Positions 1-31,204 of a stretch of 56,516 nt of DNA are shown piece after piece. The notes beneath the pieces are model-generated. The model saw only the letters and a program-made list of their open reading frames with translations. It was not told the origin of the DNA and ran no database searches. Position numbers and translations under genes: made by a program. Within the stretch, counting starts at the first letter, position 1, and the number at the start of each line of letters is the position of its first letter. The DNA comes from Eubacteriales bacterium (GTDB lineage: Bacteria; Bacillota; Clostridia; Oscillospirales; CAG-272): positions 1 through 56,516 of the forward strand of contig JAZRGD010000052.1 in NCBI GenBank assembly GCA_045644045.1. Reading direction: 5' to 3'.

Positions 1-150
1 AAGTTTGCCCTTTCGGGCAAGTGAAGTTGCCTTCGGCAGTGAAGTTCACTGCGTGAGTGAAGCTTCGCCTAACGGCGAAGTGGGGCGGACTTAACTTCGC
101 TTTGCGGGTGAAACAAGCAAAACTTCACTGTGAACGGAGCAAACAATTTC
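1..150. repeat. Hairpin-array repeat, copy A (left end cut by the window): GTGAAGTT-plus-short-hairpin units followed by AACTTC(G/A)C units
   Basis: GTGAAGTT occurs at 21-28 and 39-46, and GTGAAGCT at 57-64, with an 18-nt period. Each word is followed by a small hairpin: TGCC-ttc-GGCA, CAC-tgc-GTG, CTTCGCC-taac-GGCGAAG. The reverse-complement word occurs at 93-100 and 121-128. The first ~95 nt align with 20818-20912. Confidence 0.7.
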
Positions 151-3502: not shown

Positions 3503-4252
3503 TTGAAAAACAAGCTGAATTACGTAATGGACATCGGCGAAAGAATGCTGGTCAGCGGGGCTGAGGTCAGCCGCGTGGAGGACAGTGTTAGCCGTATTTG
3601 CCACGCCATGGGCGGTGTGAGAACGGATTGCTTCATCATCACCAGTCTGATGGTCGTCACGGTACACGACGCGCAGGGACAGACCCATACCCAAACGAGA
3701 AGGATCCGCTCCCTCGGCAACGATTTTGACAAGCTGGACAAGCTCAACCGTCTCTCAAGGCGTATCTGCGCAGAAAAGATGACGGAGGAGGAGATCGAAA
3801 AGGAGATCGCCGAGATCGACAGGTGCAAGCCCTATTCGCTCCCCGTCTCCTTCGCCACCTATGCCATCATCGCCGCTGCCTTTACCCTTTTCTTTGGTGG
3901 AACGATACTGCAAAGCCTTTTGGCTCTCGCGGTGGGCGGTGGCGTTAGAGCGGCGGTGCTGCTCTCGGAGCGAACCCTGAAAAACCCTATTTTCTGTACC
4001 TTTACCTCTGCCGCCGTGCTGACGGCACTTGCCCTTTTTGTCTCTCGCCTTACCCATCTCGGAGAGGACGAGATCATCATCGGCAGTATCATGCTTCTTG
4101 TGTCGGGACTTGGCTTTACCAACGCCCTGCGCGACCTGTTCACGGGTGACAGCATTTCGGGCATTCTGCGTTTTCTTGAGGCATTGCTTGGCGCGGTGGC
4201 CATTGCCGCAGGCTATTTCCTTGTGTCCTTTATCGGAGGTGCGATCGTATGA
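3503..4252 (+). CDS. Threonine/serine exporter family protein (ThrE N-type, DUF1212)
   Basis: In-frame TTG at 3503 lies 7 nt after AGGAG; ATG 3527 is the alternative start. 'GERMLVSGAEVSRVEDSV' is the family hallmark. TM-rich C-terminal half. Confidence 0.8.
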   Translation: MKNKLNYVMDIGERMLVSGAEVSRVEDSVSRICHAMGGVRTDCFIITSLMVVTVHDAQGQTHTQTRRIRSLGNDFDKLDKLNRLSRRICAEKMTEEEIEKEIAEIDRCKPYSLPVSFATYAIIAAAFTLFFGGTILQSLLALAVGGGVRAAVLLSERTLKNPIFCTFTSAAVLTALALFVSRLTHLGEDEIIIGSIMLLVSGLGFTNALRDLFTGDSISGILRFLEALLGAVAIAAGYFLVSFIGGAIV

Positions 4253-4725: not shown

Positions 4726-5464
4726 AAAAACGACAGACCGCGCGGATTTCGTCACCTACGCCCACAGAGGTGCCTCCCACTATGCGCCCGAAAACACCAT
4801 GATGTCCTTTTATATGGGACTTTGGCAGGGGGCGAACGGCATTGAGACCGACGTGCAGAAAACCAAGGACGGCGTTCTCGTCCTTTTCCACGACAACACC
4901 CTCACGCGCGTCACGGGAGAGACGGGAAGCGTCTCGGACTACACCTACAGAGAGCTGTCTGCCTTCACCGTCAAAAAGGGCGCGCTTTGGGACAAGATAC
5001 CCACCTTCGAGGATTTCCTCTCCCATTTCGCCTGCCGCGATATCACCTTTGCCATCGAGCTGAAGGTGGAGGGCATCGAAAAAGAGGTGGCAGACCTGAT
5101 CTTTCGCTACGGTATCGAAGGAAAAACCGTGGTCACCTCCTTCCATATGGAGTATATCCGTGCCATCAAGGAATACGCCCCCACGCTCCGCATCGGCTAT
5201 TTGACCAAGGACGTGAGTGAGGACACGGTGAACGCCCTTCTTGCCATGGGGGCGGACGAGATCTGCCCCAAGGGGTGCGATGTGACTCCCGAGCGTGTTG
5301 CCCTATGGCATGAAAAAGGCCTTAATGTACGCGCCTGGGGGATCACCGACACCGATATTATGAAAAGTGTGTATGACGCGGGGGTGGATGGTATGACCGT
5401 CAATTTCCCCGACACGCTTTTGGCTTATATCAGAGAGACCCGAAACGAAAGGGAGCAAAAATGA
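4712..5464 (+). CDS. Glycerophosphodiester phosphodiesterase (GDPD)
   Basis: ORF 4589..5464 trimmed to ATG 4712, which follows AAAGGAG. 'YAHRGASHYAPENTMMSF...GIETDVQKTKDGVLVLFHD' is the GDPD signature. Confidence 0.85.
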   Translation: MEKGEKTTDRADFVTYAHRGASHYAPENTMMSFYMGLWQGANGIETDVQKTKDGVLVLFHDNTLTRVTGETGSVSDYTYRELSAFTVKKGALWDKIPTFEDFLSHFACRDITFAIELKVEGIEKEVADLIFRYGIEGKTVVTSFHMEYIRAIKEYAPTLRIGYLTKDVSEDTVNALLAMGADEICPKGCDVTPERVALWHEKGLNVRAWGITDTDIMKSVYDAGVDGMTVNFPDTLLAYIRETRNEREQK

Positions 5465-7089
5465 AAGTATGTGTTTTGCAGCCCCACTATTCCTTCCATA
5501 CCGCCGATGCGGATGCTTGCTTTGCGGATCTGCTCGCCTTGATGGATGCGTGCGACGAAAGCCTTGACCTGATCGTCCTCCCCGAATACAGCGATGCCCT
5601 TGCCGACGTGGCGGGAAAGGACGGCTTTTACGCCATATCCGAGAAGTATAATGCCACTCTGCTGGAAAAAGCGGCCGCCACCGCCCGTCGCTGTCACGCC
5701 CTTTTGTTCGTCAATGCGGGCTGCAAAACGGAGCAGGGCATTCGCAACACCACCCACGCCTTTGACCGTGAGGGAAATCTCATTGGTCGCTATTTCAAGG
5801 CGCACCCCGCCCCCAGCGAGGTAAAGACCGACGGGGAAGGGGGACATGCGTTGGACGTGGCGTACAGCTACGAAATGAACGCTCCCTATATCCTTGAGGC
5901 AGAGGGGCTGCGCTTTGCCTTCCTCACTTGCTACGACTTCTATTTCTATGAGAATTTTCCGCAGATCGCCAGGCAAAACGCGGATATCATCATCGGATGC
6001 TCCTTGCAGAGGACGGATACTCACGAGGCCCTTTCTATCATCGGGAAATTCCTCTCTTACAACACCAACGCTTATTTGGTTCGTGCGTCGGTCTCCCTCG
6101 GTGAGGATAGCCCACTTTGCGGAAGCAGTATGGTGGTCGCGCCCGATGGTACCGAGCTGCTTAATATGAAAAGCAGGGTGGGTTTAGGCACCACTCACAT
6201 TGACCCGGAAAAGAAATATTATAAGCCCGCAGGGCATCTTGGTGCCCCTAAGGCTCATTATCAGTACATAGAAGAGGGCAGAAGGCCTTGGCTTTACCGC
6301 AACGGCGGTGCCTCTGTGGTGCGGACGGACGAGAAAATGCCCTATCCCCGTCTGTGTGCCCACCGTGGCTTTAATACCGTTGCCCCCGAAAACAGTATGC
6401 CCGCCTTTGGCGCCGCCGTTGCGCTGGGCGCGGAGGAGATCGAGCTTGACATTTGGTCTACCTCCGACGGCGTTCTGGTGTCCTGCCACGACGCCACTCT
6501 TGAGCGCGTCAGCAACGGGGAGGGGAAGATCTACGAAAAGACCTTTGCCGAGCTTCGCGCCCTTGATTTCGGTGTCAAGCACGGGGAGAAGTTCGCGGGG
6601 CTTACCATTCCTACCTTTGAGGAAATCTTGCAAAAATTCGCGGGGCGAGTGATCATGAACCTGCACGTGAAGATCTGGGACGCCCGCTTTGAAAAGCACA
6701 TGTTAGAGGAGATCGTTTCGCTCATCCGCAAATACGATTGTGAGAAGCAGGTCTACTTTATGACCACCAACGACGATATGATCCGCCGCGCCATGGCCTA
6801 TGCCCCCGACATCGGTTGCTGTGTGGGCTGGAACGGCAACAAGGAGGACCCCATGTCCATCGTAGACCGTGCCATCGCCCTCGGTGCCTACAAGGTACAG
6901 CTTTTCAAGCCCTATTTCAACGAGGAAAGCGTAAAGAAGGCACATGCCCACGGTATTCTTTGCAACGTGTTTTATGCTGACGACCCCGAGGAGGCAAGAG
7001 CATATTTCCGTATGGGCATCGACACCGTGCTGACCAATGATTATCTGGCTATCTATAACGCTGTAAAGGACGAATATTTCAAAAAATAA
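5461..7089 (+). CDS. Fusion protein: carbon-nitrogen hydrolase (nitrilase superfamily) domain plus GDPD domain
   Basis: ATGA overlap with the previous GDPD gene. The N-terminal half has 'LIVLPEY' and 'FLTCYDFYF' (CN-hydrolase Glu and Cys blocks). The C-terminal half has 'CAHRGFNTVAPENSMPAF...EIELDIWSTSDGVLVSCHD' (GDPD). Confidence 0.8.
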   Translation: MKVCVLQPHYSFHTADADACFADLLALMDACDESLDLIVLPEYSDALADVAGKDGFYAISEKYNATLLEKAAATARRCHALLFVNAGCKTEQGIRNTTHAFDREGNLIGRYFKAHPAPSEVKTDGEGGHALDVAYSYEMNAPYILEAEGLRFAFLTCYDFYFYENFPQIARQNADIIIGCSLQRTDTHEALSIIGKFLSYNTNAYLVRASVSLGEDSPLCGSSMVVAPDGTELLNMKSRVGLGTTHIDPEKKYYKPAGHLGAPKAHYQYIEEGRRPWLYRNGGASVVRTDEKMPYPRLCAHRGFNTVAPENSMPAFGAAVALGAEEIELDIWSTSDGVLVSCHDATLERVSNGEGKIYEKTFAELRALDFGVKHGEKFAGLTIPTFEEILQKFAGRVIMNLHVKIWDARFEKHMLEEIVSLIRKYDCEKQVYFMTTNDDMIRRAMAYAPDIGCCVGWNGNKEDPMSIVDRAIALGAYKVQLFKPYFNEESVKKAHAHGILCNVFYADDPEEARAYFRMGIDTVLTNDYLAIYNAVKDEYFKK

Positions 7090-7831: not shown

Positions 7832-8595
7832 AGCGTAGAGAAAGATCAAGAGACACGCTTGGAGAGGCGATTCTTGAGATCCTTCTCACTGCCGTTTCCT
7901 TCGGCGTGGGCTTTGGGATATTCGCTCTTTTTGGAGGTGCGTCTTCCGCTACGGAGAAGGACGGCGACCTGTTGACTCTTGCGGGGCTGGCTGTCATCGC
8001 GTCGGTGGTGGGCATTGCCGTTTTTCTTTGCCGCCGCATTCGCCGCCGCTTGCGCGTTGCCATTCACAGTGGCGACGGCATCAGCCTCGTTCCCATGCGG
8101 AAAAAGGGGTTTGAGGACTTCTATCGTGCCCTCTGCCGCTCCTTCGTTTGGGAGGAAACGCGAGAGAAGGACGACGCCTACGCCACCTTAAGCGACCCTC
8201 GCTTTACCGTCTACCGTATCGTGGAAAACGACCGCCCCGTCGGGTATATTACCTTATGGCGTCTCTCCCGCCTCACCTTCGTGGAGCATTTCTTCATTTT
8301 TGATGAATATCGTAGCCACGGCTACGGCGCGAGAGTGCTGGGGATGGTAAAGGAGGCCTTTGGCCCCCTCATTCTTGAGGTGGAGCCAGCCGAGGACAGC
8401 GAGCTCGCCGCCCGTCGCGTGGGCTTCTACGAGAGATGCGGCTTCCATCTGAACGACTACCCCTACGCACAGCCCTCCTTCCATGGGGAGGCACCCGTGC
8501 CCTTGAGGCTGATGACTTGTCCCGAAAGGCTGAACGACCCGTCTTCCGCCGCAGAGGAGATTTACGAGGTGGTTTACGGGATAAGGAAAGGATAA
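7828..8595 (+). CDS. GNAT-family N-acetyltransferase with two N-terminal TM helices
   Basis: ORF 7786..8595 trimmed to ATG 7828. TM helices 'ILLTAVSFGVGFGIFALF' and 'LAGLAVIASVVGIAVFL'. GNAT core 'FIFDEYRSHGYGARVL...FYERCGF'. Confidence 0.75.
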   Translation: MKRRERSRDTLGEAILEILLTAVSFGVGFGIFALFGGASSATEKDGDLLTLAGLAVIASVVGIAVFLCRRIRRRLRVAIHSGDGISLVPMRKKGFEDFYRALCRSFVWEETREKDDAYATLSDPRFTVYRIVENDRPVGYITLWRLSRLTFVEHFFIFDEYRSHGYGARVLGMVKEAFGPLILEVEPAEDSELAARRVGFYERCGFHLNDYPYAQPSFHGEAPVPLRLMTCPERLNDPSSAAEEIYEVVYGIRKG

Positions 8596-20761: not shown

Positions 20762-21241
20762 AAAAAACGCATCCGTGAGAATAGCGTGATGTCCTTAACG
20801 GACAAATCACGCTAACTAAGTTTGCCCTTGGGGCAAGTGAAGTTATCTTCGATAGTGAAGTTCACTTCGTGAGTGAAGTTTCGCCTAATGGCGAAGTGAT
20901 GGGCAAACTTAACTTCACTGCGAGCTTTTGCGAGCAACTTCACTGTGCGTAGCACAACTTCACTTTTGCGTTAGCAAAAACTTCACTACCAGAAAAAGAG
21001 CAAGAGTACAAGGAGAAAATCCTTATATTCTTGCTCTGTTTGTTTTCTGTGAATGAATTGGCTTTTCCATGAATTCTCGCTTCGCTCCATGAATTGAATT
21101 GCAACCAATGTGCCGCAAGGCACAATTCATGCCGCAGGCAATTCACGAAAGCACGGCTTTCAATTCATGCAACCGCAAGGTTGCAATTCATTGCGTGTTC
21201 TCTGTTAAGGAGAACACGCTAATCTAGCGGATGCGTTTTTT
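20762..21241. repeat. Symmetric hairpin-ladder element: terminal inverted repeats enclosing two word-plus-hairpin modules and a central terminator-like hairpin
   Basis: A perfect 14-bp inverted repeat AAAAAACGCATCCG (20762-20775) / CGGATGCGTTTTTT (21228-21241) closes the element. Each end also carries a related hairpin (20784-20812 and 21193-21219). Module 1 has GTGAAGTT at 20837, 20855 and 20873 and AACTTCAC at 20911, 20936, 20956 and 20979. Module 2 has ATGAATT at 21053, 21069 and 21089 and AATTCA(T/C) at 21124, 21140, 21162 and 21185. Confidence 0.75.
20997..21049. terminator. Central bidirectional terminator-like hairpin inside the element
   Basis: Stem AGAGCAAGA (20997-21005) / TCTTGCTCT (21029-21037) with an inner AAGGA/TCCTT pairing. 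It is flanked by AAAAA on the left and GTTTGTTTT on the right. On the minus strand it could terminate the AEC-transporter operon. Confidence 0.55.
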
Positions 21242-21243
21242 CG

Positions 21244-22233
21244 TTACGCGATCATTTGTGTCAGACCCACGATCAACGGCATTGTGATCATGGACAGCAC
21301 GGTGGACAAGGAAACGAGGCGCACCGAAAGATCGGTGTCTCGGTTGAATTTAGCGGAGAAGATGGTGGTGGTGGCCCCCACAGGCGCGCTGGCACCGATG
21401 ACCAGCACCGTCAGCACGTTGCCTCTGACGCCGCACAGGTACAACACGCCCAAAAGAGCGAGAGGGAAGAGGATGAGGCGCACCGCCATGCAGAAATAGG
21501 ACCAGCCGTCACGGATGGCGGCAAGCAGATCTGCCTTGCCCAGGTAGTAGCCCACCATCAGCATGGGAAGAGGCAGGTTGAGGGCGGAAAGGGCGGCGAG
21601 GGCATCCGAGACGAGGGAGGGCAGACGAATGCCCGCCGCGCCGCCTACGGTAACGTACAGGGGAGAGGTGAAGAAGAACAGACCCACCACAACCCCGATG
21701 ATACCGGGGTTGAGTAAGATCTTTTTGAAATTCATGGCCTTTTTGTCGCCGTTCATATCCACCAAGCCCCAGGTCCAGAGGGCGATATTGAAGACGGCGA
21801 GAAAGACTGCCGCGTACAGCGCGCCCTCGTGACATGTGGGGGTGTCGATGAGTGCCTGTGCCAGGGGAAGGGCGATAAAGCCCGCGTTGGAGAACACCGC
21901 CGCGAAGCGCATGACTCTCCGCCTGTTCTCGTCCTTAAAGCGGAACAGAAGGTAGACCGACAGGATCATGGCGACGTGCAGAAGCACCGCCACCAGGGCC
22001 ACAACGCCGATATTCCTTAAGATCTCCGTCAGCTCTGCCTTTTCGTACAGGGTGGCGCTGAAGGCGTTGACGATGACGCAGGGGGTGACGAAATACATCA
22101 CGATGTCCGCCATGCACTTGTTGGCCTCCTCGGTGAGGAGCTTGATCCTTTGGCAAACGAAGCCTAAGGCGATGATGATAAAAAGCAGTCCTACCTTCTC
22201 TGCGACCGCGAGAAAGCTATCCAAAAAGCTCAA
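21244..22233 (-). CDS. AEC (auxin efflux carrier) family transporter
   Basis: About ten TM helices. The N-terminal 'KVGLLFIIIALGFVCQRIKLL' pattern is typical of AEC permeases. Confidence 0.8.
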   Translation of the reverse strand: MSFLDSFLAVAEKVGLLFIIIALGFVCQRIKLLTEEANKCMADIVMYFVTPCVIVNAFSATLYEKAELTEILRNIGVVALVAVLLHVAMILSVYLLFRFKDENRRRVMRFAAVFSNAGFIALPLAQALIDTPTCHEGALYAAVFLAVFNIALWTWGLVDMNGDKKAMNFKKILLNPGIIGVVVGLFFFTSPLYVTVGGAAGIRLPSLVSDALAALSALNLPLPMLMVGYYLGKADLLAAIRDGWSYFCMAVRLILFPLALLGVLYLCGVRGNVLTVLVIGASAPVGATTTIFSAKFNRDTDLSVRLVSLSTVLSMITMPLIVGLTQMIA

Positions 22234-30920: not shown

Positions 30921-31197
30921 AAACAAAAATCCGTCCTCCAAATAACAGAGGACGGATGGAAATCCGTGGTACCACCTCGGTTCATCGCTTCCTTACGGAA
31001 AACGACCTTAGAAGGCACGGAGACGGGTCTCTTATGCCTCGGCGCGTTAACGGGCGCACCCGTACATACCTGACACTGTGTGTTTTCGGCAGTCAGCTCG
31101 CGAAATGTATTCGCCGTGTCCGTTCCTTCCGTCTCTCACCAACCGACGGCTCTCTGTGCGTTCGGGACACGCCTACTTGTTCTCGGTCATCGCTTTA
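30921..31197 (-). promoter_or_regulatory. T-box leader (tRNA-sensing riboswitch), specifier UAC (Tyr)
   Basis: On the minus strand, Stem I runs GCGATGA...AGTA...GTGTCC...AGAGAG...GGTGAGA...GGACAC...GAA-TAC-A...GCGAGC. The T-box sequence GAGGTGGTACCACGG lies at about 30978-30964. The terminator TCCGTCCTC / GAGGACGGA (30956-30930) is followed by TTTTT. Confidence 0.8.
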
Positions 31198-31204
31198 TGG
31201 TGCT

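Follow-up and report, generated by a model that had tools for sequence, protein, structure and literature searches.

The stretch of DNA analysed here, referred to as the window, is the whole 56,516 nt of contig JAZRGD010000052.1 from a Eubacteriales bacterium [GenBank assembly GCA_045644045.1]. Between the 3′-end of an AEC-transporter gene and rluD it carries a hairpin-rich block at 20762–21241. This block is probably a non-autonomous mobile element, resembling repetitive extragenic palindromes (REP) and miniature inverted-repeat transposable elements (MITE), that is lodged in the loop of the AEC terminator and folds as a single strand. Two canonical modules make it up, joined by their tails at a terminator-like hairpin that they share, and each module belongs to a different word family, a word being a constant sequence of 7–8 nt that alternates with hairpins of variable sequence. 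Comparison of the sequences shows each module to have the Gut-1 RNA motif [Rfam RF01706] as its left half. The grammar has therefore been catalogued under that name since 2010, and the element is best filed among the extragenic repeats and MITEs.

A first-pass annotation of the window, made from the sequence alone, had already recognised the grammar of constant word plus variable palindrome, which is real and conserved across homologues and at least 5 word families. Among the four options it offered, a REP-type mobile single-strand hairpin fits best. The single symmetric element that it described is two modules of different word families, and elsewhere either a single module or a module with a different 3′ domain is found.

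The insertion was recognised by comparison with a close relative. The nearest homologue of the AEC transporter (P0002, 93% identical) is found on metagenome scaffolds (L184, L185 and L186; loci labelled L are stretches of other genomes or contigs), where the gene order ADH, cupin, DeoC, PfkB, AEC, rluD, Lnt is retained. On these scaffolds the bidirectional terminator downstream of the AEC stop codon, AAAAACCGCATCCGTGA-AAATC-TCACGGATGCTTTTTTT, is intact. The AEC-to-rluD intergenic region is 685 bp in the window versus 253 bp in L184, and the additional ∼442 bp (20781–21222, boundaries ±∼3 nt), which include no open reading frame (ORF), fall between the two terminator arms in an alignment that is collinear on both flanks, including the rluD promoter. 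The left arm (20762–20780, an A-run and CGCATCCGTGAGA) is collinear with the intact terminator of L184 and L185 and lies outside the element, as does the right arm (21223–21241, TCTAGCGGATGCG and a T-run), which adjoins the AEC stop codon (21244–21246, minus strand). The perfect 14-bp inverted repeat at 20762–20775 and 21228–21241 is present as annotated, together with an imperfect extension of 44 nt (84% complementary). It had been taken to close the element, and is therefore the host terminator stem instead. In the predicted fold of the whole block, the host arms pair around the entire insert. AEC relatives at 84–87% identity were considered as further evidence on the site; they are not syntenic downstream and were uninformative. 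In L187 and L188 (AEC 85% identity; 5059–5843), the region ∼1 kb downstream of the AEC gene has no hairpin ladder but contains a gene for an rve-type integrase and a PF05635 fragment of 58 aa.

Terminator loops are occupied repeatedly. Split arms, consisting of an A-run and arm on one side and an arm and T-run on the other, flank at least eight copies elsewhere (L103, L114, L126, L143, L144, L148, L163 and L168), and they exceed the maximum of 20 shuffles in all of these except L148, where the 11 nt equal it. L143 and L144 are copies in two different terminators of one genome, and the genes beside members of one element subfamily differ from genome to genome. Across species, the element is found in either orientation at an ABC-transporter 3′-end (L103 and L144 versus L108). 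The loop bases left over at the junctions differ from copy to copy (T/ATT, T/TTTT, GCAA/TA, ATA/TATA, TT/ATTTG and A/A).

Module 1 is read on the plus strand. Its 5′ terminal hairpin, TAGCGTGAT..ATCACGCTA, is at 20782–20814, one base wider on each side than first annotated, and a counterpart with a covarying upper stem opens the element in L082, L088, L103, L134, L143, L144, L148, L152, L168 and L169. The region from 20815 to 20836 contains the linker ACT, a segment s1 (AAGTTTGCCC, 20818–20827), a loop and a segment s2 (GGGCAA); s1 and s2 form hairpin hp0, which is 98.5% paired across 24 homologues, with compensatory changes in 2 sequences. The A half (20837–20894) contains three copies of GTGAAGTT (20837, 20855 and 20873), each followed by a hairpin (ATC-TTC-GAT, CAC-TTC-GTG and TCGCC-TAAT-GGCGA), and the stems covary. 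AGTGAT and a third segment, s3 (GGGCAAACTT, 20901–20910), occupy 20895–20910. s3 is the complement of s1, and the s1:s3 helix is 97.9% paired in the 24 homologues. The B half (20911–20986) consists of four copies of the complementary word AACTTCAC (20911, 20936, 20956 and 20979) separated by three hairpins, TGCGAGC-TTTT-GCGAGCA, TGTGC-GTA-GCACA and TTTTGC-GTTA-GCAAAA. All seven words are where they had been reported. The last two hairpins had also been named correctly; the hairpin count is to be amended, since the spacer after the first AACTTCAC (20919–20936) is a hairpin too, closed via tandem G.A/A.G mismatches that recur across the family.

A bidirectional terminator-like hairpin common to both modules follows at 20993–21041. 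A hairpin had been annotated here, with a shorter extent (20997–21037). It has an A-run, a long, imperfect stem of 17–22 bp (inverted repeat of 22 nt, 86%) and T-rich tails on both strands (CTCTTTTTCT on the minus strand, GTTTGTTTTCT on the plus strand), and it appears in the predicted folds. Homologous hairpins (cagaaaaagag..ctctttttctg) follow the B half in many other copies, some of them with cleaner A- and T-runs.

Module 2 is a canonical module read on the minus strand, and not a separate grammar on the same strand as module 1. The words themselves were found at 21053–21191 as reported (ATGAATT at 21053, 21069 and 21089 on the plus strand and at 21124, 21162 and 21185 on the minus strand), with the copy at 21140 being AATTCAC. 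On the minus strand, the module opens with a terminal hairpin, TTAGCGTGTTCTC..GAGAACACGC (21193–21222), that aligns with the module 1 hairpin as a homologue; the hairpin annotated at 21193–21219 was correctly placed. The A half (21110–21191) contains words W0 to W3 (ATGAATT or GTGAATT) and the hairpins GCAACC-TTGC-GGTTGC, GAAAGC-CGTG-CTTTC, GCC-TGC-GGC and GTGCC-TTGC-GGCAC. By sequence reading, s3 (GGTTGCAATTC, 21096–21106) complements the 3′ part of W0 and the 5′ arm of hp0, a rule that holds in L050 and L119. The B half (21053–21095) contains three copies of AATTCAT with spacers GGAGCGAAGCGAGA and GGAAAAGCC, a division that follows from the word positions, the fold and the other word families.

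The predicted minimum-energy RNA structures are word/complement ladders in which the words pair with their complements, as the first-pass annotation had expected, with z-scores of −8.5 for module 1 (plus strand), −9.0 for module 2 (minus strand) and −11.8 for the whole block.

A further GTGAAGTT-type module is located at 1–128 (plus strand), where the start of the window cuts it at s1. The B half is degenerate, with AACTTCGC followed by a single AACTTCAC, and hairpin 2 carries a compensatory change relative to module 1 (GCC/GGC versus ATC/GAT). The module region (1–200) runs up to the ribosome-binding site and start codon (ATG at 201) of a plus-strand ORF that has no Pfam match, and its position is therefore 5′ rather than 3′ to a gene.

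The block could in principle be a chance or locally generated cluster of palindromes, produced for example by slippage or template switching at a terminator and having neither family nor function. The locus is indeed a terminator, itself a palindrome, and one relative lacks the block. Against this, GTGAAGTT occurs 11 times in the window versus 1.4 expected, a count reached in 0 of 100 shuffles, and there is a second locus in the same window. The count of ATGAATT over the whole window is not significant (11 versus 7.5 expected), with 6 of the copies within 140 bp. A strict-pattern scan of one genome per species recovered at least 120 matching stretches in other genomes, and alignable homologues show stem covariation. 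The word count, these matches, the Gut-1 homologues and the covariation already refute a chance origin, to which we assign next to no probability; the outcome that the first-pass annotation had said would point to such a cluster was not found in the related genomes.

Carriers among the matches listed are nearly all metagenome-assembled genomes of gut Clostridia (Oscillospiraceae, Acutalibacteraceae, Christensenellaceae, Ca. Scatosoma and Eubacteriales), with isolate names that indicate ruminant, rabbit and other animal guts. A location of copies at the ends of contigs was considered and dismissed, as these loci are 8-kb blocks. The elements are all intergenic and are present in multiple copies, with 3 modules in the window and at least 3–4 loci per genome in several assemblies. 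Convergent arrays of 3+4 or 3+3 words dominate the 138 clusters, and three words followed by four complements is the commonest arrangement (24/48).

The grammar parsed from 38 non-redundant canonical copies is as follows. A terminal hairpin of 10–16 bp whose sequence varies, then ACT, s1 (AAGTTTGCCC), a loop and s2 (GGGCAA) make up the 5′ part; three GTGAAGTT words, each with a hairpin, AGTG.. and s3 (GGGCAAACTT) the middle; and four AACTTCAC words with three hairpins between them, often followed by the bidirectional terminator, the 3′ part. The spacers are 8–22 nt long, and 234 of the 299 distinct ones are perfect palindromes. In an alignment of 24 cores, the helices of the A half are 96% paired, compared with 31–52% when partners are slid, and changes on both sides of a pair occur in 63 cells versus 15.6 in shuffles (0/500). 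s1 is complementary to both s2 and s3; all three change jointly in L081 and L137, and the s1:s3 helix shows compensatory changes and G:U wobbles in the 24 homologues.

Module 1 is one of a subfamily that has the hairpin TAGCGTG..CACGCTA and is common to at least 10 genomes. Its 3′ part is variable, being absent (L134), replaced by a ∼120-nt domain ending in CCGCTAAGGACATCACCC, or, in the window, an inverted second module. Unusually long arrays in a single orientation, with seven copies of GTGAAGTT in L124 (3176–3313) and six in L138 (3704–3821), indicate that the number of units is variable, possibly because words recombine with one another or through slippage.

At least five word families share this grammar, namely GTGAAGTT, ATGAATT, TCGATAT, GCTAAAT and GUGAUAUU, the last of which is found in the Gut-1 seeds. 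In every family the second array is the exact reverse complement of the word, and s3 is the complement of the 3′ part of the word and the first stem arm. The families coexist, with up to three within 8 kb of one genome and two side by side in the window. That word and complement change together speaks for pairing within the molecule, or at the least for a recognition that does not depend on orientation, and against one word-specific protein that binds double-stranded DNA. This bears on a second explanation, in which the words are arrays of protein-binding sites in double-stranded DNA (iteron-, centromere-, transposase-end- or operator-like), arranged as two inverted sets with incidentally palindromic spacers. 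Constant words of 7–8 bp at spacings of ∼15–26 bp, in two inverted arrays of three and four sites, would suit such a role, and recall multi-site transposon ends and partition sites. However, each of at least five words under one grammar, up to three of them within 8 kb of a genome, would need its own protein, and the distance from one word to the next changes with the length of the stem (spacers of 8–22 nt). Selection for palindromic spacers with strand-asymmetric loops is left unexplained by double-stranded DNA binding, no DNA-binding gene recurs as a neighbour at 120 loci, and hundreds of chromosomal copies would be unexpected for origins or centromeres. We regard this explanation as improbable. 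Likenesses to the P1 parS boxA (ATTTCAC) and to the CS-6 motif of plasmid ssoA (TAGCGT) were put down to chance, since they are missing from other word families and subfamilies.

The relationship to Gut-1 contradicts the earlier statement that the block matches no Rfam family and takes away much of the novelty claimed for it, by the measure that the first-pass annotation had itself set. At the gathering threshold (50 bits for Gut-1), the only Rfam family in the window is a T-box leader [RF00230] at 30945–31199 (minus strand, 97.6 bits), which fits a Firmicutes/Clostridia host. Four matches to Gut-1 come from a permissive scan, all below 50 bits and all in register with the word/hairpin units: 45.6 bits at 20813–20884 (plus), 38.5 at 1–68 (plus, 5′-truncated), 32.2 at 20932–20988 (minus) and 29.1 at 21119–21193 (minus). 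Six alignable homologues exceed the threshold (L163, 57.4 bits; L126, 53.4; L180, 53.0; L084, 52.0 and 51.0; L125, 50.6), and these align column by column with module 1 of the window. Successive covarying hairpins on a GUGAAAU-like linker, as in Gut-1, are present, with 96% of cells paired and 11 pairs changed on both sides (0/500 shuffles).

Gut-1 entered the literature as a candidate small RNA, reported from human gut metagenomes alone and with no function given (Weinberg et al. 2010, Genome Biol 11:R31, PMC2864571). The likeness extends to 3–4 small covarying hairpins, a constant GUGAAAU-type linker, gut Firmicutes-type sequence and matches on the matching strand. The difference is that the Rfam model spans only the A half (∼77 nt), and that Weinberg et al. 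treat Gut-1 as a free-standing small RNA. Inspection of the Gut-1 seeds and their flanks shows s1 and s3 segments and a complementary-word half, a GUGAUAUU-word member being followed by GGCGAAUAUA and then by four copies of AAUAUCAC with three hairpins between them. Of this larger unit the Rfam model thus takes in the left half alone. Absent from Weinberg et al. 2010, and from the results of literature searches in which that paper was the sole relevant find, are the terminal hairpins, the half with complementary words, an internal terminator, more than one word family, multi-copy occurrence in identified Clostridia and a location in terminator loops; nor did these searches find the full two-array module or phage copies.

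The strand on which the hairpins are favoured was examined across the family. On the strand that carries the complementary words, loops are closed by G..A or A..A (GAA, GTA, GCA and GNNA), mismatches are tandem G.A in a CGAG context (n = 34), and hairpins are more often the more stable ones, both with RNA parameters (102 versus 32) and with DNA parameters (103 versus 28). Read on the element plus strand, loops in the A half are T..C in 60/75 and those in the B half G..A or A..A in 72/89. The signature is therefore mirrored, with the minus strand of the element favoured in the A half and the plus strand in the B half, so that any single transcript contains one favourable and one unfavourable half. 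Inverted REP doublets have a similar mirrored arrangement of strands. G:U or G:T pairs are rare (33/1554, as 12 and 21), the variable stems switching almost exclusively from one Watson-Crick pair to another, which is unlike typical covariation in alignments of structured RNAs. A strand test that compares G:T with A:C counts (12 versus 21) was indecisive. Loop-loop kissing between A-half and B-half hairpins was considered and rejected, the loops in the window being non-complementary (TTC, TTC and TAAT versus TTTT, GTA and GTTA).

These observations bear on the possibility that the block is above all a functional structured RNA, either a Gut-1-type small RNA or an element of a 3′ untranslated region (UTR), with copy number and position reflecting recruitment by the host and not selfish mobility. 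It might, for example, stabilise or insulate an mRNA, serve as a processing substrate, or act as a sponge for a protein that reads the single-stranded words between hairpins. Strong stem covariation would be expected of such an RNA, and GNRA, GNA and CUUG-type loops together with tandem sheared-type G.A mismatches in a CGAG context are found on one strand of the B half. The G:U wobbles in s1:s3 favour the plus strand of the element, the terminator follows the module in sense orientation, and the upstream gene is co-oriented with the element in 23 cases versus 11. In addition, the element is kept at the same loci across species, and Gut-1 was rated an RNA by Weinberg et al. (PMC2864571). On the other hand, G:U intermediates are nearly missing from the variable stems, and the mirrored signature leaves each transcript with one good and one poor half (U..C loops, U.C and C.U mismatches). 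No conserved promoter is found upstream of the 5′ hairpin, and insertion polymorphism means that a host does without the element. Arrays that have no complementary half are found in all gene contexts, divergent intergenic regions among them, with no consistent orientation to transcription or to neighbouring genes. Taken together, the mirrored signature, the rarity of G:U pairs and the orientation-free arrays incline us, on sequence grounds, to see DNA hairpins, or both strands, as the object of selection and not a single RNA, and a primarily RNA-level function appears rather unlikely.

As to the type of mobile element, there are close parallels with REP, BIME and REPIN sequences, which are mobilised by RAYT transposases of the IS200/IS605-like Y1 type. 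The shared features are short hairpin units outside genes, each with a conserved word at its foot, inverted sets, many copies per genome that are mostly at the 3′-ends of genes, coexisting families, non-autonomy and no target duplication. The ladder is extragenic, multi-copy and composed of inverted units, as REP sequences are, but it has no conserved imperfect palindrome of 20–40 nt with a GTAG-type 5′ foot. In REP the palindrome is conserved, whereas in the ladder the hairpins vary (299 distinct spacers) and only the 7–8-nt word is constant. The ladder stems are of 2–8 bp, stacked 3–4 per half, and its hosts are Clostridia, whereas REP hosts are mainly Proteobacteria. A RAYT gene was not seen in the 56 kb of the source genome or in the 8-kb blocks of other genomes.

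The bacterial MITE-like repeats that fold in mRNA (Correia/NEMIS, ERIC, BOX and RUP) share with the ladder a size of <500 bp, the absence of an ORF, multiple intergenic copies, insertion polymorphism and possibly imperfect terminal inverted repeats. Modular construction (BOX being boxA-boxB(n)-boxC) and the possibility of long structures once transcribed are also common to both. Once the host arms are set aside, the two terminal hairpins of the block are homologous, and it is small, non-coding, multi-copy and present or absent in relatives; in the single-module subfamily the 3′-end, ..CCGCTAAGGACATCACCC, resembles the 5′ hairpin only loosely. The ladder differs from MITE-like elements in having no visible target-site duplication of fixed length, in a target that is a structure (a terminator loop) and not a short sequence such as TA, and in an interior that is a word/hairpin ladder with a bidirectional terminator-like hairpin of its own, not a simple long inverted repeat.

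Insertion at the apex of a pre-existing hairpin, with an insert that pairs end to end, is also known from IS1397 and ISKpn1, which enter REP loops, and from 23S rRNA intervening sequences. IS1397 belongs to the IS3 family, is autonomous and targets the REP sequence specifically, and the intervening sequences sit in rRNA and are removed by RNase III. The ladder, in contrast, has no ORF, and its targets are many unrelated mRNA terminators. At several loci a PF05635 gene (E 6e-25; a four-helix bundle named "23S rRNA intervening sequence protein") is directly after the element (compare the 23S rRNA intervening sequences). In L084 (637–1960), and also in L081, L113 and L137, this gene and its ribosome-binding site directly follow the last AACTTCAC. 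In L084 it is followed by a 299-aa gene with helix-turn-helix and T5orf172 (GIY-YIG-like) domains, and a second copy of the element is 2.6 kb downstream; upstream at loci of this type is a rumA-type methyltransferase gene with its 3′-end overlapping the terminal hairpin of the element.

Integron attC boxes (RYYYAAC/GTTRRRY) were not seen on reading the ends of the element, for which no pattern search was made, and no integrase was found at the element loci. In L129 (1–4100; metagenome-assembled genome JAFTKM010000008, roe deer cecum), four unrelated small genes (161, 285, 186 and 257 aa, minus strand) are arranged in a cassette-like manner. They are separated by a conserved ∼300-bp unit that has four copies of ATGAATT and no complementary half, followed at 2 of the 4 junctions by three to four copies of GTGAAGTT. 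A TGGTATAAT-type promoter motif is readable in at least 2 units, and the run adjoins ORFs that by eye resemble cotJB and cotJC. The run resembles an integron-style cassette array in which word arrays replace attC.

Blastn searches of the block against phage and plasmid collections gave no match, and no contigs turned up when rluD and the ORF at 201–845 were looked up as exact proteins. Pattern matches in viral contigs (n = 63) are mostly coding tandem repeats, the true relatives being only L006, L023, L050 and L058. L023 [IMG/VR 3300029305_011416] contains two inverted 4+4 ladders (3845–4055 and 7848–8060) with AT-rich centres and no s1 or s3. They bracket ORFs that by eye resemble phage scaffold, major-capsid and head-completion genes, the first ladder being located after a portal-like gene. 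The family therefore also resides in phage or prophage genomes. That the inverted pair is a transposon was considered and rejected, as the enclosed genes read as phage head genes (portal, scaffold and capsid by reading of the translations).

The insertion, the family membership and the selection on structure are shown by the comparisons above; the course of events that we infer is that the element spreads as a folded single-stranded nucleic acid, with the word plus hairpin units as the recognised modules, and that a hairpin-binding enzyme encoded elsewhere would move it, by analogy with REP, BIME and REPIN. Among 735 clustered ORFs from 120 loci, the recurrent families include ABC transporters, RumA and PF05635 and no recurrent transposase, as expected for a non-autonomous element. 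Insertion into a terminator may be tolerated in two ways: the self-folding ladder would, according to the predicted folds, bring the split host arms together again, and the internal bidirectional terminator may replace the interrupted function. The AEC mRNA would then carry module 2 in sense in its 3′ UTR and end at the central hairpin, and transcripts of such elements may be what was catalogued as Gut-1 RNA.

Several points weigh against this account of the block as a terminator-borne mobile element. There is only one true filled/empty pair, no fixed-length target-site duplication is visible at the junctions, and no mobilising enzyme was found. The stem covariation is equally expected for a functional RNA, and Gut-1 was rated as certainly an RNA (Weinberg et al. 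2010, PMC2864571). Some loci retain the element across several species (rumA-element-PF05635 and the ABC-transporter 3′-end), which could reflect a host function and not selfish spread. Arrays with no complementary half cannot form the ladder, and a simple terminator scan made no call on the central hairpin at 20993–21041. The account also leaves unexplained why variable hairpins are placed between constant words. We nevertheless consider a mobile element to be the probable explanation.

A broader and more tentative proposal, which we hold to be somewhat less likely than its opposite, is that Gut-1-type ladders are an unrecognised class of structure-targeting, non-autonomous mobile DNA. Such elements would be built of interchangeable word plus hairpin units and would integrate, probably as folded single strands, in the apical loops of Rho-independent terminators whatever their sequence. 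They would bring a replacement bidirectional terminator with them, and an enzyme encoded elsewhere would have spread them among gut Clostridia and the phages of these hosts, the Rfam small RNA then being a by-product of transcription.

Gut-1, a motif in Rfam with neither host nor function assigned since 2010, is here placed for the first time in a genomic and mechanistic context. It makes up one half of a modular repeat of larger size, abundant among uncultured gut Clostridia (Oscillospiraceae, Acutalibacteraceae, Christensenellaceae and others) and found also in prophage-like contigs. For annotation, such blocks lengthen 3′ UTRs and add terminators, and are likely to mislead terminator, small-RNA and repeat predictors in gut metagenome-assembled genomes. 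If insertion in terminator loops is targeted, the family would be a clean case of a mobile element that recognises DNA or RNA structure, not sequence, and one that would also compensate for the function it disrupts.

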